Shown: positions 10,049-16,679 of the stretch, in pieces
Position numbering within the stretch: position 1 is the first letter of the stretch
Layout: each line of letters begins with the position of its first letter
From: Giardia intestinalis
Lineage: Eukaryota
Length of the DNA stretch: 64,000 nt
NCBI GenBank assembly: GCA_000002435.2
Contig: CM018793.1
Strand: one strand, 5' to 3'
The notes under the pieces: generated by a model
The model's database searches: none
What the model was told of the DNA's origin: nothing
The model's input: the letters and a program-made list of their open reading frames with translations, nothing else
Made by a program: the position numbers and the translations under genes

Positions 10049-11548
10049 ATGCCCCCCAAACCTGCCAAAAGTGATCCCTCGCAACCAGACGTTCTATGGT
10101 CAAAGGGGTACAATTTGGAGAAATTTGAAGAGAACAAGGATAAGTTTCCTCCTACACTCAAGATTGACAAGGGGGCATCAAAGTGTTTCTTTGAGGTCTA
10201 TAGTCAGTGCCTCGCAGCATTACAAATGGCACCGCTTCCCTGTCTTCAACTTGCTCTCAAAACAATAAAGCCTTGTGAACATATTCACATTCACTCTCAT
10301 GATATTGACAGCGCGTCTGCAACCGTTATCGGGTATGCATTAACAGAAGCAGCAGATGTTAGGGCGCTCACATTGACAGATGTACTTTTGGATTCTGAAG
10401 CAATCTTCGGATTTGCTAAATCCAATCCAAATATAATGAGTTTATCATTTGAACGCATGTGTATCAGCTCTGCCCTTTTAGATATGCTCTTCGAATCCTT
10501 GGGCTCTACACCGTTTGTCAGAAAACTCTCATTCCGTCAATGCAAGTTCCTAGACTTCGATAAGCTGTGCAAATATATATCCAGTCCACAAGCGTACGCT
10601 ATAACTCATCTGACAATAGCAAACTGCAGCCTAGGGACAACTGAACTGACTGCCCTAACAAATTCGCTTGCTGTTAGCGAGTCAACGTTCACACTAGATG
10701 CATATGATGCGCTCGAATGCCTCATGCATAAAAACTGTGGAGTTAAGTTCTTAAACCTTGAGGATAATGAATTAGACTCAGATCAGGTAATTCTGTTGTT
10801 AGAGTCCCTATTCAAGAAGCGCCAACTAAAGTCCCCAGAAATCCAGCTAGCATTTGTGAAAAAAGAGCTATGCTACGCATTACTCAATGCTATCCTTCTG
10901 CAGGACTGTCCACTCGACTTACCAGGCACTATCAGAAAAGTAGGTCGAATTCTTCCTTCATTCGAATCCGCCACAGAGACCTTAGCCACCAAGATAGCTG
11001 ACATAGTATCTGCCGGAAAGTCTCTCTGTTATCCACCAGCCAACACGGCTGGTGGATCTGCTGCTAAGGCGAAGCTGAAAGACGATGCCCCGCAACCACT
11101 CATGATGGCCAACACTGTTAGGGAATTTGTACAAAGTATACACCGAAGCAAGTCACTCATAGACATTACTGATGACGAGCTGCATGTAATAGCCGTTGCC
11201 TTGCCTCCATCAAATCTGCAATCAGTATCCTTTGAATACAGTCAGGTAGGAGAGTATGTGACACCGAACAATTCTATACTCGGGATAAATCTTAAGGGAA
11301 ATGAGATCGACCTAGACGATGTAGCAACTGTGAAGAGACTAGAAGGACTATTGCAGCATACATCGCTTTGCTATTTGGGAACGGATGCCAAGTTGTCATA
11401 TGCAGATGAGCAGACAGGAGGAGAAGAGCAAGTCAAGAAGGAAGACGTGCTCGCACTTATATTTGAGGAGAATCGGCGGCGGATGAGCTCTCTAGAGCAG
11501 CCATACCTTTATGAACCTTGCTCTGGTGTCCCGGCGAAAAAGAAGTAA
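10049..11548 (+). CDS. Leucine-rich-repeat protein, 499 aa (RNI-like LRRs).
   Basis: ATG at 10049. Repeated L..L.L..N.L motifs occur (KFLNLEDNELDSDQVILLLESL, THLTIANCSLGTTELTALTNSL, LGINLKGNEIDLDDVATV). Confidence 0.55.
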   Translation: MPPKPAKSDPSQPDVLWSKGYNLEKFEENKDKFPPTLKIDKGASKCFFEVYSQCLAALQMAPLPCLQLALKTIKPCEHIHIHSHDIDSASATVIGYALTEAADVRALTLTDVLLDSEAIFGFAKSNPNIMSLSFERMCISSALLDMLFESLGSTPFVRKLSFRQCKFLDFDKLCKYISSPQAYAITHLTIANCSLGTTELTALTNSLAVSESTFTLDAYDALECLMHKNCGVKFLNLEDNELDSDQVILLLESLFKKRQLKSPEIQLAFVKKELCYALLNAILLQDCPLDLPGTIRKVGRILPSFESATETLATKIADIVSAGKSLCYPPANTAGGSAAKAKLKDDAPQPLMMANTVREFVQSIHRSKSLIDITDDELHVIAVALPPSNLQSVSFEYSQVGEYVTPNNSILGINLKGNEIDLDDVATVKRLEGLLQHTSLCYLGTDAKLSYADEQTGGEEQVKKEDVLALIFEENRRRMSSLEQPYLYEPCSGVPAKKK

Positions 11549-11577: not shown

Positions 11578-12315
11578 CTAGTGTATGTGAGATGCCATCC
11601 GGGGGTGTATCACTGTAAATCTACGCATTTTTTCCCGCCTCACTGCCTTGGATCGGTTCAATTCATCGAAAATCCGGCCCAGAACCTGCGCCTCTGTTTC
11701 TCCGGCAATAAATATAGCCCCTGGTGGAAGAACCATCTCGCTACGTTCTCGCTTGCTATCAGAATCACGGCCATAGTCAAGGTATAAGATTAGATCACTA
11801 CGCAGGATAGTCTGCGAGCTGCAAAGGACCCCGGTGCAAAGAACGCCTTTGTAACCCGCACGCTTAGCCTGTTGCGAAAGTGCAGCAACAAGCCCCTTGG
11901 AATATGTATACAAGGCTTGACTGTTCTTCAAGCATTCCATTTCTGTACTCATCAGTGTCATCTGGTCTCTAAGGGCTTTTTGAGCGATGGGGTGGTCACC
12001 GCAACTGAGCACAAACGTATCCCTTGTAAGCGTGAAGGTGCATGCTCTATCAAATGAAGACATCAAGTACCGAAGCCTGTTGTCGTCCACACTGATCTTG
12101 TGCCTCCCAGCATAATATGCGAGTCCCTGAAGAATATAATTTGTGTTGATATGGACCAGATTATATCTCTCCCCCACAGCAGCAAGAGAGTCAGCTGAGA
12201 TCTCTCCGAGTAGCGAGATTGCAAAGAAGCCATCACGGTTGATGGTGAATAACGTTAGTATCACTACGCTGAGGAGAAAATTGGCCGTGATTAGGAGCCC
12301 AGTGAACGTGAGCAT
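11578..12315 (-). CDS. Hypothetical signal-anchored membrane protein, 245 aa.
   Basis: ATG at 12315. The N-terminal hydrophobic segment is LLITANFLLSVVILTLF. No confident family assignment. Confidence 0.45.
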   Translation of the reverse strand: MLTFTGLLITANFLLSVVILTLFTINRDGFFAISLLGEISADSLAAVGERYNLVHINTNYILQGLAYYAGRHKISVDDNRLRYLMSSFDRACTFTLTRDTFVLSCGDHPIAQKALRDQMTLMSTEMECLKNSQALYTYSKGLVAALSQQAKRAGYKGVLCTGVLCSSQTILRSDLILYLDYGRDSDSKRERSEMVLPPGAIFIAGETEAQVLGRIFDELNRSKAVRREKMRRFTVIHPRMASHIH

Positions 12316-12425
12316 GGCAAGGCAACGGGGCGACTTTTACTCTAATATGCCATATTGTCATAAAATATAAAAGATAAAAGTAAGTTTATTGAACAAATTC
12401 TGCAGCTGAGGAGTGCAGCCGAGTT

Positions 12426-14906
12426 ATGGACATCATAGGCTCTCGAGAAATAGGAGATTTTGATCTTGATGAGGTAGAAGATTCCATCCGTAAATGTGAG
12501 GCATTTCTTGCCAACGAGGACTTTACTCTGGACTTCAGCCATCTTCCGATTGAAGCATCACTTCCCGGCACTGAGCAACAGCCGGTCTTATCTGCTCCTA
12601 CATATTCTGTCACAACTGACGATGGTGTAGGGTTGCTGAATAAGCGCATGGATGCAAATGCCTCGTTGTCCGTCTCAAAGAGTGAGAAGAGCTACAAGGA
12701 AGATGATGGGGTAAGGTTAGATAGTCAACCAGTACTAGAGATATTTCAGAAGAGTAGATCAGAATCTAAGAGGAATGCACCCAGCAAGCCTCTTATGCTG
12801 CCCAAGTCGGCATCTAGTGGAAGTATTCCTGATCGCCAGGCAGTCCCGATAGAAGAAAATCCACTTGTGAAGCGTACGATCAATCTTCTCCCTCGCAAGC
12901 GCGGGCAAGATAGACCGTCTGTCTCTTCCTATCATGAGCCCACTGTCAAAGTCGGGTCGGAATCTAATTCGATTACAGCAGAAGAAGCGCCAAAACCAGC
13001 CACTACAGATCCTCGAAGGGGCTCTGATGCAAAGGAGATGAGATCTAGTGTAGATAAGGAGGGTAGTACGGCGCTTATTAAAAACACCGCACTGGCCGCA
13101 CCTAGGAAACCAGCATCCCCCACACAAAACCGTCTAGCTGCAAACAGATCACCTCATAGCCAACAGCCTGGTGCAGCCGCTCAACGAAGTAATACACCAA
13201 AGCATAGGCCTCCCAAACTATCGCGTCCAGGAACACCAGACAGAATACCACGTTCTTCTTCATCAGGGATTCCTCGAGCAGCGTCGGCAAGGAGCAAAAT
13301 GGCAGCATCTATAGCCGAATCTCGCCTGGAGGCATACCTACGCGAAAAGGAGGAGCGTGAACTCAAGGAGTGTACATTTCATCCCAAAATATTGACAAAA
13401 AAGCACCCCAAGAAGGATTCAGAGAGAGAAGCGCCTGAAGATAGACTTAGAAACGAGGGAGAGAGAAAGCGGATAGAGCACGAGAAAATGCGTGTGTACA
13501 AAGAACGTGCTGAGTTCGAAGTTTGCACCTTCAAGCCAGAACTGTCGGCTCGCACCGAAAAGATAATGGCAAAGAAGAATATGAAGCCTATATATGAAAG
13601 GTATGCCGAAACCATGGAGCAGCACAGACAGAAAGTCGAAGAGCTTGCAGCTTTGGCAGAGGCTGAACAGTACTATCCCGAAATTGATGAGAAGGCTCGA
13701 ATGCGAAGAGATATACTGGCGCAGAAAGCACTGACGAGAAGTGGAATAGATCCATTTGCTCCCCCAGAAGAGCGCTTGTACAGTCCAGGAGCTAAGCGTG
13801 CCAATCTCAGAGTCGCAAAGGACAGTACACCACAGGATGCCAACGAGGCCATTGAATGCTCTTTCAAGCCACAAATTAATAAGGAAAGTATGGCTATAGC
13901 TCGAAAAAATAGTCAGCTTAGTGGGGATTTCTTTCAGAGACAGACATATTATAAAGACAAGAAGATGCGTCATATCCAAGCAATGGAGCGAGATGAGGCA
14001 TCTGCACTTACGTTTCAACCCAATATACGACGTGCGTCCTCGGCTGGAACGGGCGGTAAGAGACGAGAGTCAGATGGTAGCCCCACATTCCCGTGTGCCC
14101 CCAGCAGAGTAAGCGAGGATATAGATGGTGTGTCTGTGCATGAAAGACTTTACAGACGATCAATCTCTAGATCCAAAGGCACTGTGCATCAGCCAGAGCC
14201 ACAAGGTGTGCATGATGAGTGTCGTTTCATCCCTGAGATCAACCAGCACTCAAAGAACATAGGAAGAAAGTCGACAATTGAGGAATTATACAGAAATACT
14301 TTAGCAAGTAACAAGAAGGATGCTCTATGTAAGGTTATCGATGAAGAACAGCAGAAGGAGTGCACATTCAAGCCTACAATCCACTCTGACAAGGCCAAAT
14401 CGCACTACAATATCCATCGGCCAGAATCCTTGTTGGTCCAAATCGAGATGGAGCGGCAGCAGAAGGCAGTCAAACTAAACATGATGAAGAAGAAATTGGA
14501 ATATGATGAAGTGCAAACGTGCTCTTTCAGGCCTGAGATAAAAAGCACAGTGCCTCGAACCGTTTACAATGGCCCAACCGTCACGCAGGACGTGGATGAG
14601 GCATTTGGAAGCAGTATAAAGGGCTTAGGACGGTTCATGGAAAAGCAAGAGTTGGCAAGGAAAAAGGTGGAGGAACAAAAGCTTCGGGAAAGCAAGGTAT
14701 TTGGGCTCAATCCGTCAGGAAAGACAGGAAAGCCGTACACGATACCTCAGCCGTTTAACCTATCATATGAAATGAGCGCAAGGAAGTCTGCTTTTGAAAG
14801 AGATAAGATAGCCTCGGTCGCCCTCAAGGATTACACATTTCAACCCCAGACATCTGAAAAGCGTGTAAAGGACCTTGTTGCTCACATACTCAGTAATGAC
14901 GAGTGA
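12426..14906 (+). CDS. Hypothetical protein (826 aa) with an S/P/R-rich N-terminus followed by about 8-10 tandem ~50-aa charged helical modules. Each module is marked by C[TS]F[KHRQ]P.[IL].
   Basis: ATG at 12426. Motif copies seen directly are ECTFHPKI, VCTFKPEL, ECSFKPQI, LTFQPNI, ECRFIPEI, ECTFKPTI, TCSFRPEI and YTFQPQT. Degenerate copies are DPFAPPE and YTIPQPFNL. Spacing is about 48-68 aa, with double-length gaps holding the degenerate copies. Confidence 0.6.
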   Translation: MDIIGSREIGDFDLDEVEDSIRKCEAFLANEDFTLDFSHLPIEASLPGTEQQPVLSAPTYSVTTDDGVGLLNKRMDANASLSVSKSEKSYKEDDGVRLDSQPVLEIFQKSRSESKRNAPSKPLMLPKSASSGSIPDRQAVPIEENPLVKRTINLLPRKRGQDRPSVSSYHEPTVKVGSESNSITAEEAPKPATTDPRRGSDAKEMRSSVDKEGSTALIKNTALAAPRKPASPTQNRLAANRSPHSQQPGAAAQRSNTPKHRPPKLSRPGTPDRIPRSSSSGIPRAASARSKMAASIAESRLEAYLREKEERELKECTFHPKILTKKHPKKDSEREAPEDRLRNEGERKRIEHEKMRVYKERAEFEVCTFKPELSARTEKIMAKKNMKPIYERYAETMEQHRQKVEELAALAEAEQYYPEIDEKARMRRDILAQKALTRSGIDPFAPPEERLYSPGAKRANLRVAKDSTPQDANEAIECSFKPQINKESMAIARKNSQLSGDFFQRQTYYKDKKMRHIQAMERDEASALTFQPNIRRASSAGTGGKRRESDGSPTFPCAPSRVSEDIDGVSVHERLYRRSISRSKGTVHQPEPQGVHDECRFIPEINQHSKNIGRKSTIEELYRNTLASNKKDALCKVIDEEQQKECTFKPTIHSDKAKSHYNIHRPESLLVQIEMERQQKAVKLNMMKKKLEYDEVQTCSFRPEIKSTVPRTVYNGPTVTQDVDEAFGSSIKGLGRFMEKQELARKKVEEQKLRESKVFGLNPSGKTGKPYTIPQPFNLSYEMSARKSAFERDKIASVALKDYTFQPQTSEKRVKDLVAHILSNDE
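13367..14852 (+). repeat. Intragenic tandem protein-module repeat (C-[TS]-F-x-P motif, period about 150 nt) inside the 12426..14906 CDS.
   Basis: Motif codons lie at about 13367, 13521, 13854, 14009, 14215, 14356, 14518 and 14829. Confidence 0.6.
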
Positions 14907-14987: not shown

Positions 14988-15347
14988 TTAGTGCCGCTTG
15001 ATGACAGAGAATTGGCTGACCGGGCCGATAACTGGACCACCATAAAGGGCTGTCTCGTTGGGAAACGTGTCAATAGACGCGCTCTGCTTGCCCGAGGTCA
15101 GACCCTTTGACAGTTGCTGTTGGGGCTGTGCTAACGTTTCTGATTTAAACTCGTCAGTGATATTGGGAAGAATAGCAGCGACAGCCGCTGGGGACGCAGA
15201 CGGAGGAATTTGGAGGAAGGTAATGGCATTGTCAAGCTGCTCATAAAGCCGAGCCTGGCTAAGCAGATACTTTCCATAGTCTGAACTGGCAAGTGTCTTT
15301 TTGCAGTGTGTTGAGGCATATTGGATTGTCTGTAGGTAGTTAGACAT
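14988..15347 (-). CDS. Hypothetical small protein, 119 aa.
   Basis: ATG-initiated. It is divergent from the Pcc1-like gene across a 16-bp spacer. No recognisable domain. Confidence 0.3.
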   Translation of the reverse strand: MSNYLQTIQYASTHCKKTLASSDYGKYLLSQARLYEQLDNAITFLQIPPSASPAAVAAILPNITDEFKSETLAQPQQQLSKGLTSGKQSASIDTFPNETALYGGPVIGPVSQFSVIKRH

Positions 15348-15363: not shown

Positions 15364-15633
15364 ATGTCCAACGGCAAACAGTTCTCTGGCACCTTGATTC
15401 TGACGCTGTCCAGCTCTGAGGAGATAGGTATCCTGATAAAGTCTCTCCAGGGAGGTGTTTCTCTTGACGCCGCAGATACTGTTACCTTTTCTGTTGACGA
15501 TACAACCTTGACAGTTGCAATGCATGCTCCTACGCTGAAGCAGCTTCGAAAAATGTATGGATCTTATTGCGAGGCGGCTGACCTGGTTCTAGAAACGATG
15601 TCTCGACTTGGAAGAACAACTGTTAAGGCCTAG
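15364..15633 (+). CDS. PCC1: Small Pcc1/CTAG-family-like protein (KEOPS/EKC complex subunit candidate), 89 aa.
   Basis: The alternating pattern TLILTLSSSEEIGILIKSL...VTFSVDDTTLTVAMHAPTLKQLRKMYGSYCEAADLVLETM resembles Pcc1/LAGE3 (l.i.F.s.e.A....sL......v.v.g..L.i...A.d...LRasvnS.l....lv.e.m). The assignment rests on pattern only. Confidence 0.45.
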   Translation: MSNGKQFSGTLILTLSSSEEIGILIKSLQGGVSLDAADTVTFSVDDTTLTVAMHAPTLKQLRKMYGSYCEAADLVLETMSRLGRTTVKA

Positions 15634-15872: not shown

Positions 15873-16679
15873 TTAAAACATAATATCTGGGTCTTCTACA
15901 GCGCACTCAATGATATCTGAGTGTGGTTCTGCCCCCTTCCCCTGTTGGCGCTCCGCCTCTGCAGCTTCACGCCTTCCATCTGCCACCTTCTTTATACGAG
16001 CAAACTCCTCTCTTTCCGTCTCCTCCAGAGAGTCTGTAATCCACTTTATAGTGTTCTCTAGCTTAGGTAAAAGGATGTACTCGATGGCATTGACACGTCG
16101 GGATGTCACCTTAACCTCTTCGGTCAGATCCGCACAGGACCTCTGGAGCCCCGCCACGGCAACCATAGCGCTGAGGGCAACAATCCACTTCGCCTTGGTC
16201 TCGTTCAGGTGGCCCTGATTGCTAGAGAAACCGAGAGAAACAGAGTTCATGGCAGTGAGCCCGGCAGCTGTTGTGTTTGGACTCTGCTTTGTGGGGTCAT
16301 CCGGACGAATGTCCAGCGCCTTCCCCGTGAAGTCACATAGAGTAAACGATGAGACACGTACCCCAGCTACATTCTGGATGATCTTATGGACAGTAAGGTT
16401 GGGGGCTGCTTCGCATGCACTGAAAAGCGTCGAATACAGATCCGATCCCGACGTCACGGACCGCTGGGCGAGGGTGAGAGACCAGTTCGCCTCCTTGAGA
16501 GCACTAACCATTGCCTCACGAGCTGTTACCAGTTGAGAGTTTAGGGATCTGAGCTGCAAAGTCATCGCATCCAGCTTCTTTTTGAGGAGGCTGTGTCCCC
16601 TCTGCGAAGCAGCATATCGCTGCCGCAGCGCCATAAGCTGCATCTTTGTCGGTAGCACATTAAGTCTTTGGTCGCTCAT
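15873..16679 (-). CDS. ATP6V1D: V-type H+-ATPase subunit D.
   Basis: The sequence is colinear with VMA8/ATP6V1D: PTKMQLMALRQRYAASQRGHSLLKKKLDAMTLQLR ... VKVTSRRVNAIEYILLPKLENTIKWITDSLEETEREEFARIKKV (compare [42 protein letters not shown]). Confidence 0.9.
   Translation of the reverse strand: MSDQRLNVLPTKMQLMALRQRYAASQRGHSLLKKKLDAMTLQLRSLNSQLVTAREAMVSALKEANWSLTLAQRSVTSGSDLYSTLFSACEAAPNLTVHKIIQNVAGVRVSSFTLCDFTGKALDIRPDDPTKQSPNTTAAGLTAMNSVSLGFSSNQGHLNETKAKWIVALSAMVAVAGLQRSCADLTEEVKVTSRRVNAIEYILLPKLENTIKWITDSLEETEREEFARIKKVADGRREAAEAERQQGKGAEPHSDIIECAVEDPDIMF

Follow-up and report, generated by a model that had tools for sequence, protein, structure and literature searches.

In the 64,000-nucleotide stretch of contig CM018793.1 of Giardia intestinalis (assembly GCA_000002435.2) analysed here and referred to below as the window, positions 12426..14906 of the plus strand are occupied by a complete open reading frame (ORF), which runs from ATG to TGA and encodes 826 amino acids (aa) plus the stop codon; start, stop and length are exactly those given by the first-pass annotation of this DNA. 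The product is 100% identical to Giardia duodenalis GL50803_17011, a 'hypothetical protein'. That the ATG at 12426 is the true start is supported by an N-terminal peptide of the protein, which is kept at the very N-terminus in members of its family from several supergroups. No second copy or paralogue of the gene was found within the 64-kb window. The main features of the protein are nine related modules and one distinct loop, the PF element, contained in a C-terminal repeat region (module scores refer to the module hidden Markov model, HMM, described below; pI, isoelectric point):

12456..12521, plus strand, aa 11-32: N-terminal acidic helix peptide DFDLDEVEDSIRKCEAFLANED, kept in several supergroups
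12546..13307, plus strand, aa 41-294: Ser/Pro/Ala/Arg-rich basic linker, low-complexity and poorly conserved, pI 10.2
13308..14903, plus strand, aa 295-826: family-defining repeat region with nine modules and one PF element, pI 9.2
13350..13397, plus strand, aa 309-324: module 1 core EERELKECTFHPKILT, HMM 19.3 bits
13503..13580, plus strand, aa 360-385: module 2 core ERAEFEVCTFKPELSARTEKIMAKKN, HMM 16.6 bits
13650..13715, plus strand, aa 409-430: module 3 ALAEAEQYYPEIDEKARMRRDI, a degenerate copy in the Giardia protein; the nearly invariant F and P columns of the family are occupied by Y416 and P418
13842..13910, plus strand, aa 473-495: module 4 core NEAIECSFKPQINKESMAIARKN, HMM 16.1 bits
13986..14042, plus strand, aa 521-539: module 5 core ERDEASALTFQPNIRRASS, HMM 11.0 bits
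14217..14273, plus strand, aa 598-616: module 6 core ECRFIPEINQHSKNIGRKS, HMM 7.7 bits
14340..14399, plus strand, aa 639-658: module 7 core DEEQQKECTFKPTIHSDKAK, HMM 19.7 bits
14514..14564, plus strand, aa 697-713: module 8 core QTCSFRPEIKSTVPRTV, HMM 7.6 bits
14727..14771, plus strand, aa 768-782: PF element GKPYTIPQPFNLSYE, a TPX2-ridge-type loop, with P776 and F777 invariant across the family
14820..14870, plus strand, aa 799-815: module 9 core ALKDYTFQPQTSEKRVK, HMM 12.3 bits
directly after the module 9 core: conserved C-terminal helix VKDLVAHILSNDE

Repeated motif and architecture of the Giardia protein

All eight peptides that had been quoted as copies of a recurrent motif are present in the translation, and their number is far above the expectation from shuffled sequences. 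There are 8 copies of [TSR]F[KHRQI]Px[ILT] (at aa 317, 368, 479, 529, 600, 647, 700, and 804), while 20,000 shuffles gave a mean of 0.018 and a maximum of 2; for the canonical form [C][TS]F-x-P-x-[ILT], the 8 copies compare with about 0.02-0.08 expected, a ninth copy being degenerate. In the orthologue from G. muris all eight copies are invariant, although the overall identity of the two proteins is just 47%. Within the single Giardia protein the likeness between copies spans just ~10-23 aa, and a BLAST self-comparison detects no internal repeat, so that profiles are needed to see it. A 28-residue HMM of the module, built from non-Giardia relatives only, recovers 8/8 copies with a summed score of 104 bits; the highest score among 500 shuffles was 9.8 bits. 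The recurrence of the motif is thereby confirmed. Successive copies are separated by 51, 111, 50, 71, 47, 53, and 104 aa. The first of the double-length gaps contains the degenerate ninth copy (module 3 by position), whose residues Y416-Y-P418-E-I420 fall in the nearly invariant F/P columns of the family; the second contains the PF element, 770-PYTIPQPFNLS-780.

The description of a charged K/E/R-containing region following a Ser/Pro/Arg-rich N-terminal part agrees with the composition of the protein. In the linker (aa 41-294) serine accounts for 15%, proline for 11%, alanine for 10% and arginine for 9% of the residues, whereas the repeat region contains 12% glutamate, 11% lysine and 9% arginine, its pI of 9.2 being close to the family median of 9.3. 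The G. muris orthologue (643 aa vs. 826 aa) lacks most of the Ser/Pro-rich linker, and both length and sequence of the linker differ among the assemblages of G. duodenalis; it is therefore a fast-evolving disordered spacer. Upstream of it lies the N-terminal peptide DFDLDEVEDSIRKCEAFLA, with the consensus L-[DE]-x-[VI]-E-x-x-I-R-x-[CA]-E-x-[FYL]-L, which is found at the very N-terminus in members from metamonads, green algae, Marchantia, stramenopiles and Rhizaria. A profile of this peptide had no significant match in the PDB; its conservation implies, as far as can be judged from sequence, a docking role of the N-terminal helix apart from that of the repeats.

The AlphaFold2 model, made with a 29-sequence alignment, has a predicted template modelling score (pTM) of 0.19 and a mean predicted local distance difference test score (pLDDT) of 65 (54-65 across the models). 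It consists of confidently predicted isolated helices and coil, with no tertiary packing, and every module loop is non-helical and placed between a long charged helix before it and a short helix after it. A Foldseek search of the PDB with this model yielded no fold match (E≥6), as could be expected from a model whose pTM is just 0.19.

As for the surroundings of the gene, two downstream neighbours could be identified: a homologue of the Pcc1/KEOPS subunit (15364-15633, plus strand, 89 aa, Pfam PF09341, E=1.9e-6) and subunit D of a V-type ATPase (15873-16679, minus strand, 268 aa, PF01813, E=1.3e-45), genes which are functionally unrelated to the repeat protein. Three other flanking ORFs, located at 10049-11548 (plus strand, 499 aa), 11578-12315 (minus strand, 245 aa) and 14988-15347 (minus strand, 119 aa), had no Pfam match at E≤0.01 and are probably Giardia-specific or highly divergent proteins. 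ORFs of 87-199 aa that overlap the gene on the minus strand (12386-12649, 12759-13127, and 13419-14018) most likely owe their existence to the sense frame and do not code for protein.

A family of nine-module proteins in eukaryotes

A word-indexed sequence search with the Giardia protein retrieved Giardia sequences only. When 1.84 billion representatives were searched exhaustively by HMMER with a profile of the conserved C-terminal 532 aa, 1,232 relatives were detected at E≤1e-3; the stricter cut-offs of E≤1e-10 and E≤1e-30 retain 391 and 49 of them, respectively. Many of the relatives are collinear over about 500 aa and align to the profile from end to end. Taxonomy was read from the 150 of these 1,232 matches that were listed, roughly 30 of which carry organism names, and the following refers to the matches listed. 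The named relatives come from Fornicata (Dysnectes and Carpediemonas), the jakobid Andalucia, the heterolobosean Naegleria, the euglenid Ploeotia, ciliates (Blepharisma and Stentor), stramenopiles (oomycetes, Hondaea and a probable Incisomonas sequence), Rhizaria (Amorphochlora), many green algae, including Chlamydomonas (CHLRE_08g358567v5) and Volvox, and, among land plants, the liverwort Marchantia (Mp8g01460). No metazoan, fungal or angiosperm names occur among them, few of the sequences being named. To our knowledge, all organisms with named members build flagella at some stage of their life, Botryococcus being uncertain; in Marchantia, it is the sperm that is flagellated.

The named members are annotated as 'hypothetical' or 'uncharacterized'. 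The member from Carpediemonas membranifera bears the NCBI name 'pathogenesis-related genes transcriptional activator', which has the appearance of an erroneous automated annotation, the family showing no recognizable DNA-binding domain. Pfam hmmscan of the Giardia protein, five orthologues and 59 diverse relatives returned random singletons only and no consistent family.

The consensus of the family comprises nine ordered loops of the form [E-C]-T-F-x-P-x-[ILV]-N-x-x-S-x-x-[LI]-[AV], in which the Phe and Pro columns are (nearly) invariant. When the nine positional modules were compared pairwise by profile-profile alignment (HHalign), they proved to be mutually homologous with probabilities of 91-98%, often over 40-60 aligned columns. 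Hence they represent true tandem repeats of ~50 aa, ancient in origin and something beyond a recurring short motif, and the earlier estimate of about 8-10 such modules can be narrowed down to nine. The spacing between modules likewise varies little from one supergroup to another, the medians being 47-58 aa and the interquartile range often 1-3 aa (47-48 aa between modules 6 and 7; 54.75-56 aa between modules 5 and 6). The PF element is not a tenth module, as its HHalign probability is ≤3% against those modules that have no columns in common with it. Neither this element nor the N-terminal helix nor the pan-eukaryotic family had been recognized in the first-pass annotation. A zinc- or metal-binding repeat was also considered; each module has a single Cys, CxxC is absent, and the module Cys is not a metal ligand, because its column contains just 51% Cys across the family and L, F or Y otherwise.

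The possibility that the motif recurs merely as a by-product of charged, biased, low-complexity sequence and has no specific function is in our opinion extremely improbable. The richness of the region in E, K and R and the modest mean pLDDT values of the models speak in its favour; however, it is contradicted by the shuffle controls, by the invariance of every copy between two Giardia species that share as little sequence as indicated above, and by the existence of 1,232 homologues, with F and P columns that are invariant across supergroups.

Sequence links to proteins solved on tubulin

A profile of the module, based on 140 units from 36 diverse family members, was searched against 177,635 distinct PDB sequences. 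Its sole match was CIP3 (CPH1-interacting protein 3) of the conoid fibre of Toxoplasma gondii (TGME49_225020, PDB 9y9z), with E=5.8e-7 and four module copies at about residues 235, 484, 570, and 621; a Giardia-only profile likewise placed CIP3 first in the PDB. The full family profile is collinear with residues 479-645 of CIP3, that is, with three consecutive modules (hmmsearch, E=1.1e-4), and HHalign of this segment with the family gives a probability of 95.6% (E=1.2e-8, 92 columns). A phmmer search of the PDB with the whole Giardia protein gave nothing meaningful. CIP3 and the Giardia protein have in common several copies of an [E]CTFxPx[IV]N module at similar spacing, and both are long, extended and non-globular.

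Earlier work had described CIP3 as containing coiled coil and disorder only (PMC5740107). In the structure of the conoid fibre determined by cryo-electron microscopy in 2025 it is an extended 'molecular glue' around protofilaments 2-5, which spans the seam, passes through the tubulin wall and is present as one copy per 8 nm; its other contacts in the fibre are SAS6L, PRP, CF1 and microtubule inner proteins (MIPs) (PMC12819142). Without CIP3 growth is modestly impaired, and the combined loss of CIP3 and CF1 is synthetically lethal (PMC12819142; see also PMC12905489). CIP3 has been reported to be confined to coccidians, and it sits on the open C-shaped conoid fibre, a structure that Giardia does not have.

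Besides CIP3, the best PDB match of the family profile was Xenopus TPX2, and this match is due to the PF element. A profile of the PF element, built from the protist family only, was searched against the whole PDB, and its top two matches were Xenopus TPX2 (3knd_B, E=3.5e-4) and human TPX2 (6bjc_T, E=3.7e-4). The best domain on human TPX2, residues 298-310, is exactly the ridge, while the ridge-like repeats at 591-600 and 658-670 are matched more weakly; the score on TPX2 amounts to 25.2 bits, whereas 2,000 shuffles of TPX2 gave a maximum of 8.7. The human TPX2 sequence used in these tests (258-747) is 100% identical to the PDB chain 6bjc_T. The ridge (human 300-GCTIVKPFNLSQ-311) is an extended loop on the protofilament crest, whose F307 enters a pocket at the longitudinal inter-dimer interface, and mutation of F307 weakens microtubule binding (PMC5679754; PMC7551519). 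The loop of Giardia (770-780) is of the same type as those of human TPX2 (Q9ULW0) and of Xenopus TPX2 (GHTVPKPFNLS) and conforms to the ridge pattern T-[IV]-x-x-P-F-x-[LF]-S/T. The next match of the PF profile, which is not significant (E=0.11), was the segment 229-241 of the Chlamydomonas central-apparatus protein FAP99 (PDB 7n6g/7sqc), containing TVPQPFNLT, a sequence that is almost the same as the ridge/PF element; judging from sequence, ridge-type loops may be commoner among axonemal microtubule-associated proteins (MAPs) than is annotated.

The resemblance to TPX2 extends to the general plan. TPX2 has nine repeats of 45-60 aa, each composed of a ridge-like loop, a charged helix and an FKA±PxP loop (PMC7551519), and the Giardia family has nine modules with loops and charged helices and median spacings of 47-58 aa; the microtubule-facing region of TPX2 is intrinsically non-globular, as is the Giardia protein. 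This is an architectural resemblance, not a demonstrated homology. The ridge-type loops number six in TPX2 vs. one in the Giardia family, the repeated loop is FKA±PxP in the former and CTFxPxIN in the latter, and the Giardia family has no evident counterpart of the TPX2 wedge (F-H helix), of the Aurora-A-binding N-terminus or of the nuclear localization signal overlapping the ridge. In the case of the wedge, which in TPX2 (F334/H335) lies about 11 aa beyond the ridge, inspection of the family consensus after aa 780, with no formal test, revealed no obvious F-H helix; at the N-terminus the family has the other conserved peptide described above.

Could the whole family then be a divergent branch of the TPX2/FAM161 superfamily? 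Its nine modules would be derived from the nine repeats of TPX2, the ECTFxPxI loop would be a variant of FKA±PxP, and the function would be similar to that of TPX2 (microtubule nucleation or spindle assembly) or FAM161 (the inner scaffold of the centriole). Apart from the number and length of the repeats and the match of the PF element to the ridge, such an origin is favoured by the alignment of human TPX2 with the family, in which HHalign pairs TPX2 repeat 7 (IEPFCLETDRR-helix-ACFKARPNT) with the last unit of the family (TIPQPFNLS-helix-ECTFxPxT), an HMM of this unit scoring 14.3 bits on repeat 7 against a shuffle maximum of 10.6. Furthermore, at ~520-527 human TPX2 (6bjc_T) has a loop, VPFKPQIP, which is without the usual Ala and whose core is identical to that of Giardia module 4, SFKPQIN. 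This loop hints at a relation between CTFxPxI and FKA±PxP, although the module HMM is not significant there. On the other hand, the HHalign probability is only 3% (E=0.014) with the single TPX2 sequence (258-747) rather than a TPX2 family profile; the module HMM scores 0.1 bits on human TPX2 (P=0.38); F[KR]AxP has 0 copies in the Giardia protein; and Pfam TPX2 (PF06886) and TPX2_importin (PF12214) match neither the Giardia proteins nor 59 other members. Taken together, this makes membership of the superfamily rather improbable in our estimate, although the pairing of repeat 7 with the last unit and the nine 45-60-aa repeats of TPX2 are the reason to keep a remote TPX2 ancestry in consideration. 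The part that truly resembles TPX2 is the PF loop (E=3.5e-4 with the ridge) and not the motif that had been flagged, which contains no FKARP and whose assignment to TPX2 is unsupported by Pfam and by HHalign.

FAM161 is homologous to TPX2 by profile-profile analysis and has PF±Φ ridge-like loops and charged helices (PMC7551519). FAM161A/B, MAPs of the centriole inner scaffold and of the connecting cilium, share the loop-helix-loop style with the Giardia family and are set apart from it by the absence of FKA±PxP loops and of any Pfam UPF0564 (PF10595) match in 60 family members; for the flagged motif this lead is not supported.

The other lead, pointing to the Mn repeats of SAXO/MAP6, has fared no better. 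The minimal Mn signature is [TS][TS]x4[YF] (PMC10973386). It is found once in the Giardia protein vs. 0.95 expected, and Pfam STOP (PF05217) gives no match. SAXO, MAP6, SPM1 and FAP363 are filamentous and contact the lattice at each tubulin repeat by short microtubule-binding units in tandem, a plan similar to that proposed here for the Giardia protein; their motif syntax is different and includes a 7-residue helix. With nothing but this filamentous plan and its short repeated motifs in its favour, and with no SPM1, FAP363, SAXO or any MIP chain among the PDB matches of the module profile, the assumption that GL50803_17011 is a SAXO/MAP6/SPM1-type microtubule inner protein seems very improbable. 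None of the catalogued MIP modules (NWE, SNYG, ELLEn, PYG, GFG, DM10, and Mn) corresponds to the CTFxP motif. The SxIP motif (2 observed vs. 0.96 expected) and the PxIxIT docking motif are not enriched in the Giardia protein.

Proposed microtubule-lattice binding and its implications

We suppose, with slightly better than even confidence, that GL50803_17011 is an extended, basic, multi-site binder of the microtubule lattice and belongs to an ancient, so far unnamed eukaryotic family. The argument is that both significant sequence links, to CIP3 and to the TPX2 ridge, lead to proteins that have been solved on tubulin. The earlier idea of a tandem short-module lattice binder is supported by these two links, while the families named for it are not supported in the case of the flagged motif. 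The coil motifs, the isolated helices of the model and the pI of 9.2 give the protein a basic, non-globular character that fits lattice binding, and the conserved spacing of ~50 aa would have the look of a ruler matched to a periodic partner.

The proposed mode of action is as follows. The protein would lie extended on or around the microtubule lattice. On tubulin, a site that recurs along the lattice would receive the Phe, Pro and Ile of each module loop, and the charged helices would keep the loops at distances that suit the lattice period: a helix of ~25-33 aa would measure ~4-5 nm, similar to the repeat of the tubulin monomer (4 nm) or to the distance between protofilaments (~5 nm). In the ridge-type loop, F777 would enter the hydrophobic pocket at a longitudinal inter-dimer interface in the way F307 of TPX2 does, and the N-terminal helix would recruit a partner. 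The net result would be the stapling of neighbouring tubulins or protofilaments and the stabilization of a long-lived microtubule array of Giardia, the candidates being the axonemes and basal bodies, the median body, and the funis or the ventral disc. A role specific to the disc is weakened by the wide occurrence of the family in eukaryotes without a ventral disc, which makes a universal target (axoneme, basal body or root microtubules) likelier; however, Giardia could have redeployed the protein to a structure of its own, such as the disc.

Several points weigh against this interpretation. The residues of CIP3 that touch tubulin are stated neither in the paper nor in its supplements (PMC12819142), so that the modules of CIP3 are no more than its presumed tubulin contact sites. 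In 1,010 aa CIP3 has ~4 recognisable modules vs. nine in Giardia, 3-4 of them matching, and neither a PF element nor the N-terminal helix is detectable in it. As to TPX2, the link consists of one loop of ~13 aa with E about 3e-4, homology of the whole proteins being not significant. The apparent link of the family with flagellated taxa is drawn from few named sequences, and the literature on GL50803_17011, Cre08.g358567, Mp8g01460 and the motif strings yielded nothing relevant. Finally, short conserved loops in disordered sequence are also typical of motifs that dock to partners other than tubulin.

The last point leads to the main competing explanation, according to which the protein acts as a scaffold, its loops being docking sites for a partner other than tubulin, such as a folded domain of some cytoskeletal, membrane or nuclear protein; the resemblance to lattice binders would then be incidental. 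The conserved core of the modules, ~10-23 aa of predicted coil beside disorder, does resemble linear motifs; CIP3 has contacts besides those with tubulin, as listed above; and the conservation of the N-terminal helix points to one or more further partners. However, nine copies with a spacing of ~50 aa maintained over more than five supergroups suggest a partner that is periodic and polymeric, the TPX2-ridge match points independently to tubulin, the protein and its family are basic, and docking motifs such as SxIP and PxIxIT show no enrichment. We consider a scaffold of this kind unlikely.

Returning to lattice binding, tandem short-module lattice binders are a known kind of protein, whereas no description appears to exist of the module, of the family or of its connections with CIP3 and the TPX2 ridge. 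How the lattice is recognized by short non-globular modules is an active question, the catalogued examples being the TPX2 ridge/wedge, Mn, NWE, SNYG and ELLEn. What was an anonymous Giardia ORF is now a member of a nine-module family with >1,200 members in most eukaryotic supergroups and no Pfam model of its own, and this family has one relative solved on tubulin (CIP3) and a loop matching the experimentally validated ridge of TPX2. If our interpretation holds, a new lattice-binding module would be added to the catalogue; the ancestry of CIP3 would reach beyond Apicomplexa, a point of relevance to the proposal that the apical complex arose from a flagellar structure; and the protein would be a concrete candidate when unassigned densities on the microtubules of the axonemes, disc or median body of Giardia are to be explained.

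We tentatively go one step further and propose, at rather less than even confidence, that E-C-T-F-x-P-x-I-N-x-x-S represents an unrecognised class of tubulin 'staple' modules dating from the last eukaryotic common ancestor, of which CIP3 is a derived apicomplexan member. Such a class, if real, would be distinct from Mn, TPX2/FAM161 and other described MAP and MIP modules. CIP3, now regarded as lineage-specific, would then tie the conoid fibre to a microtubule structure of the ancestral flagellate, and in Giardia nine modules together with a TPX2-type ridge would brace the protofilaments of a hyperstable array.

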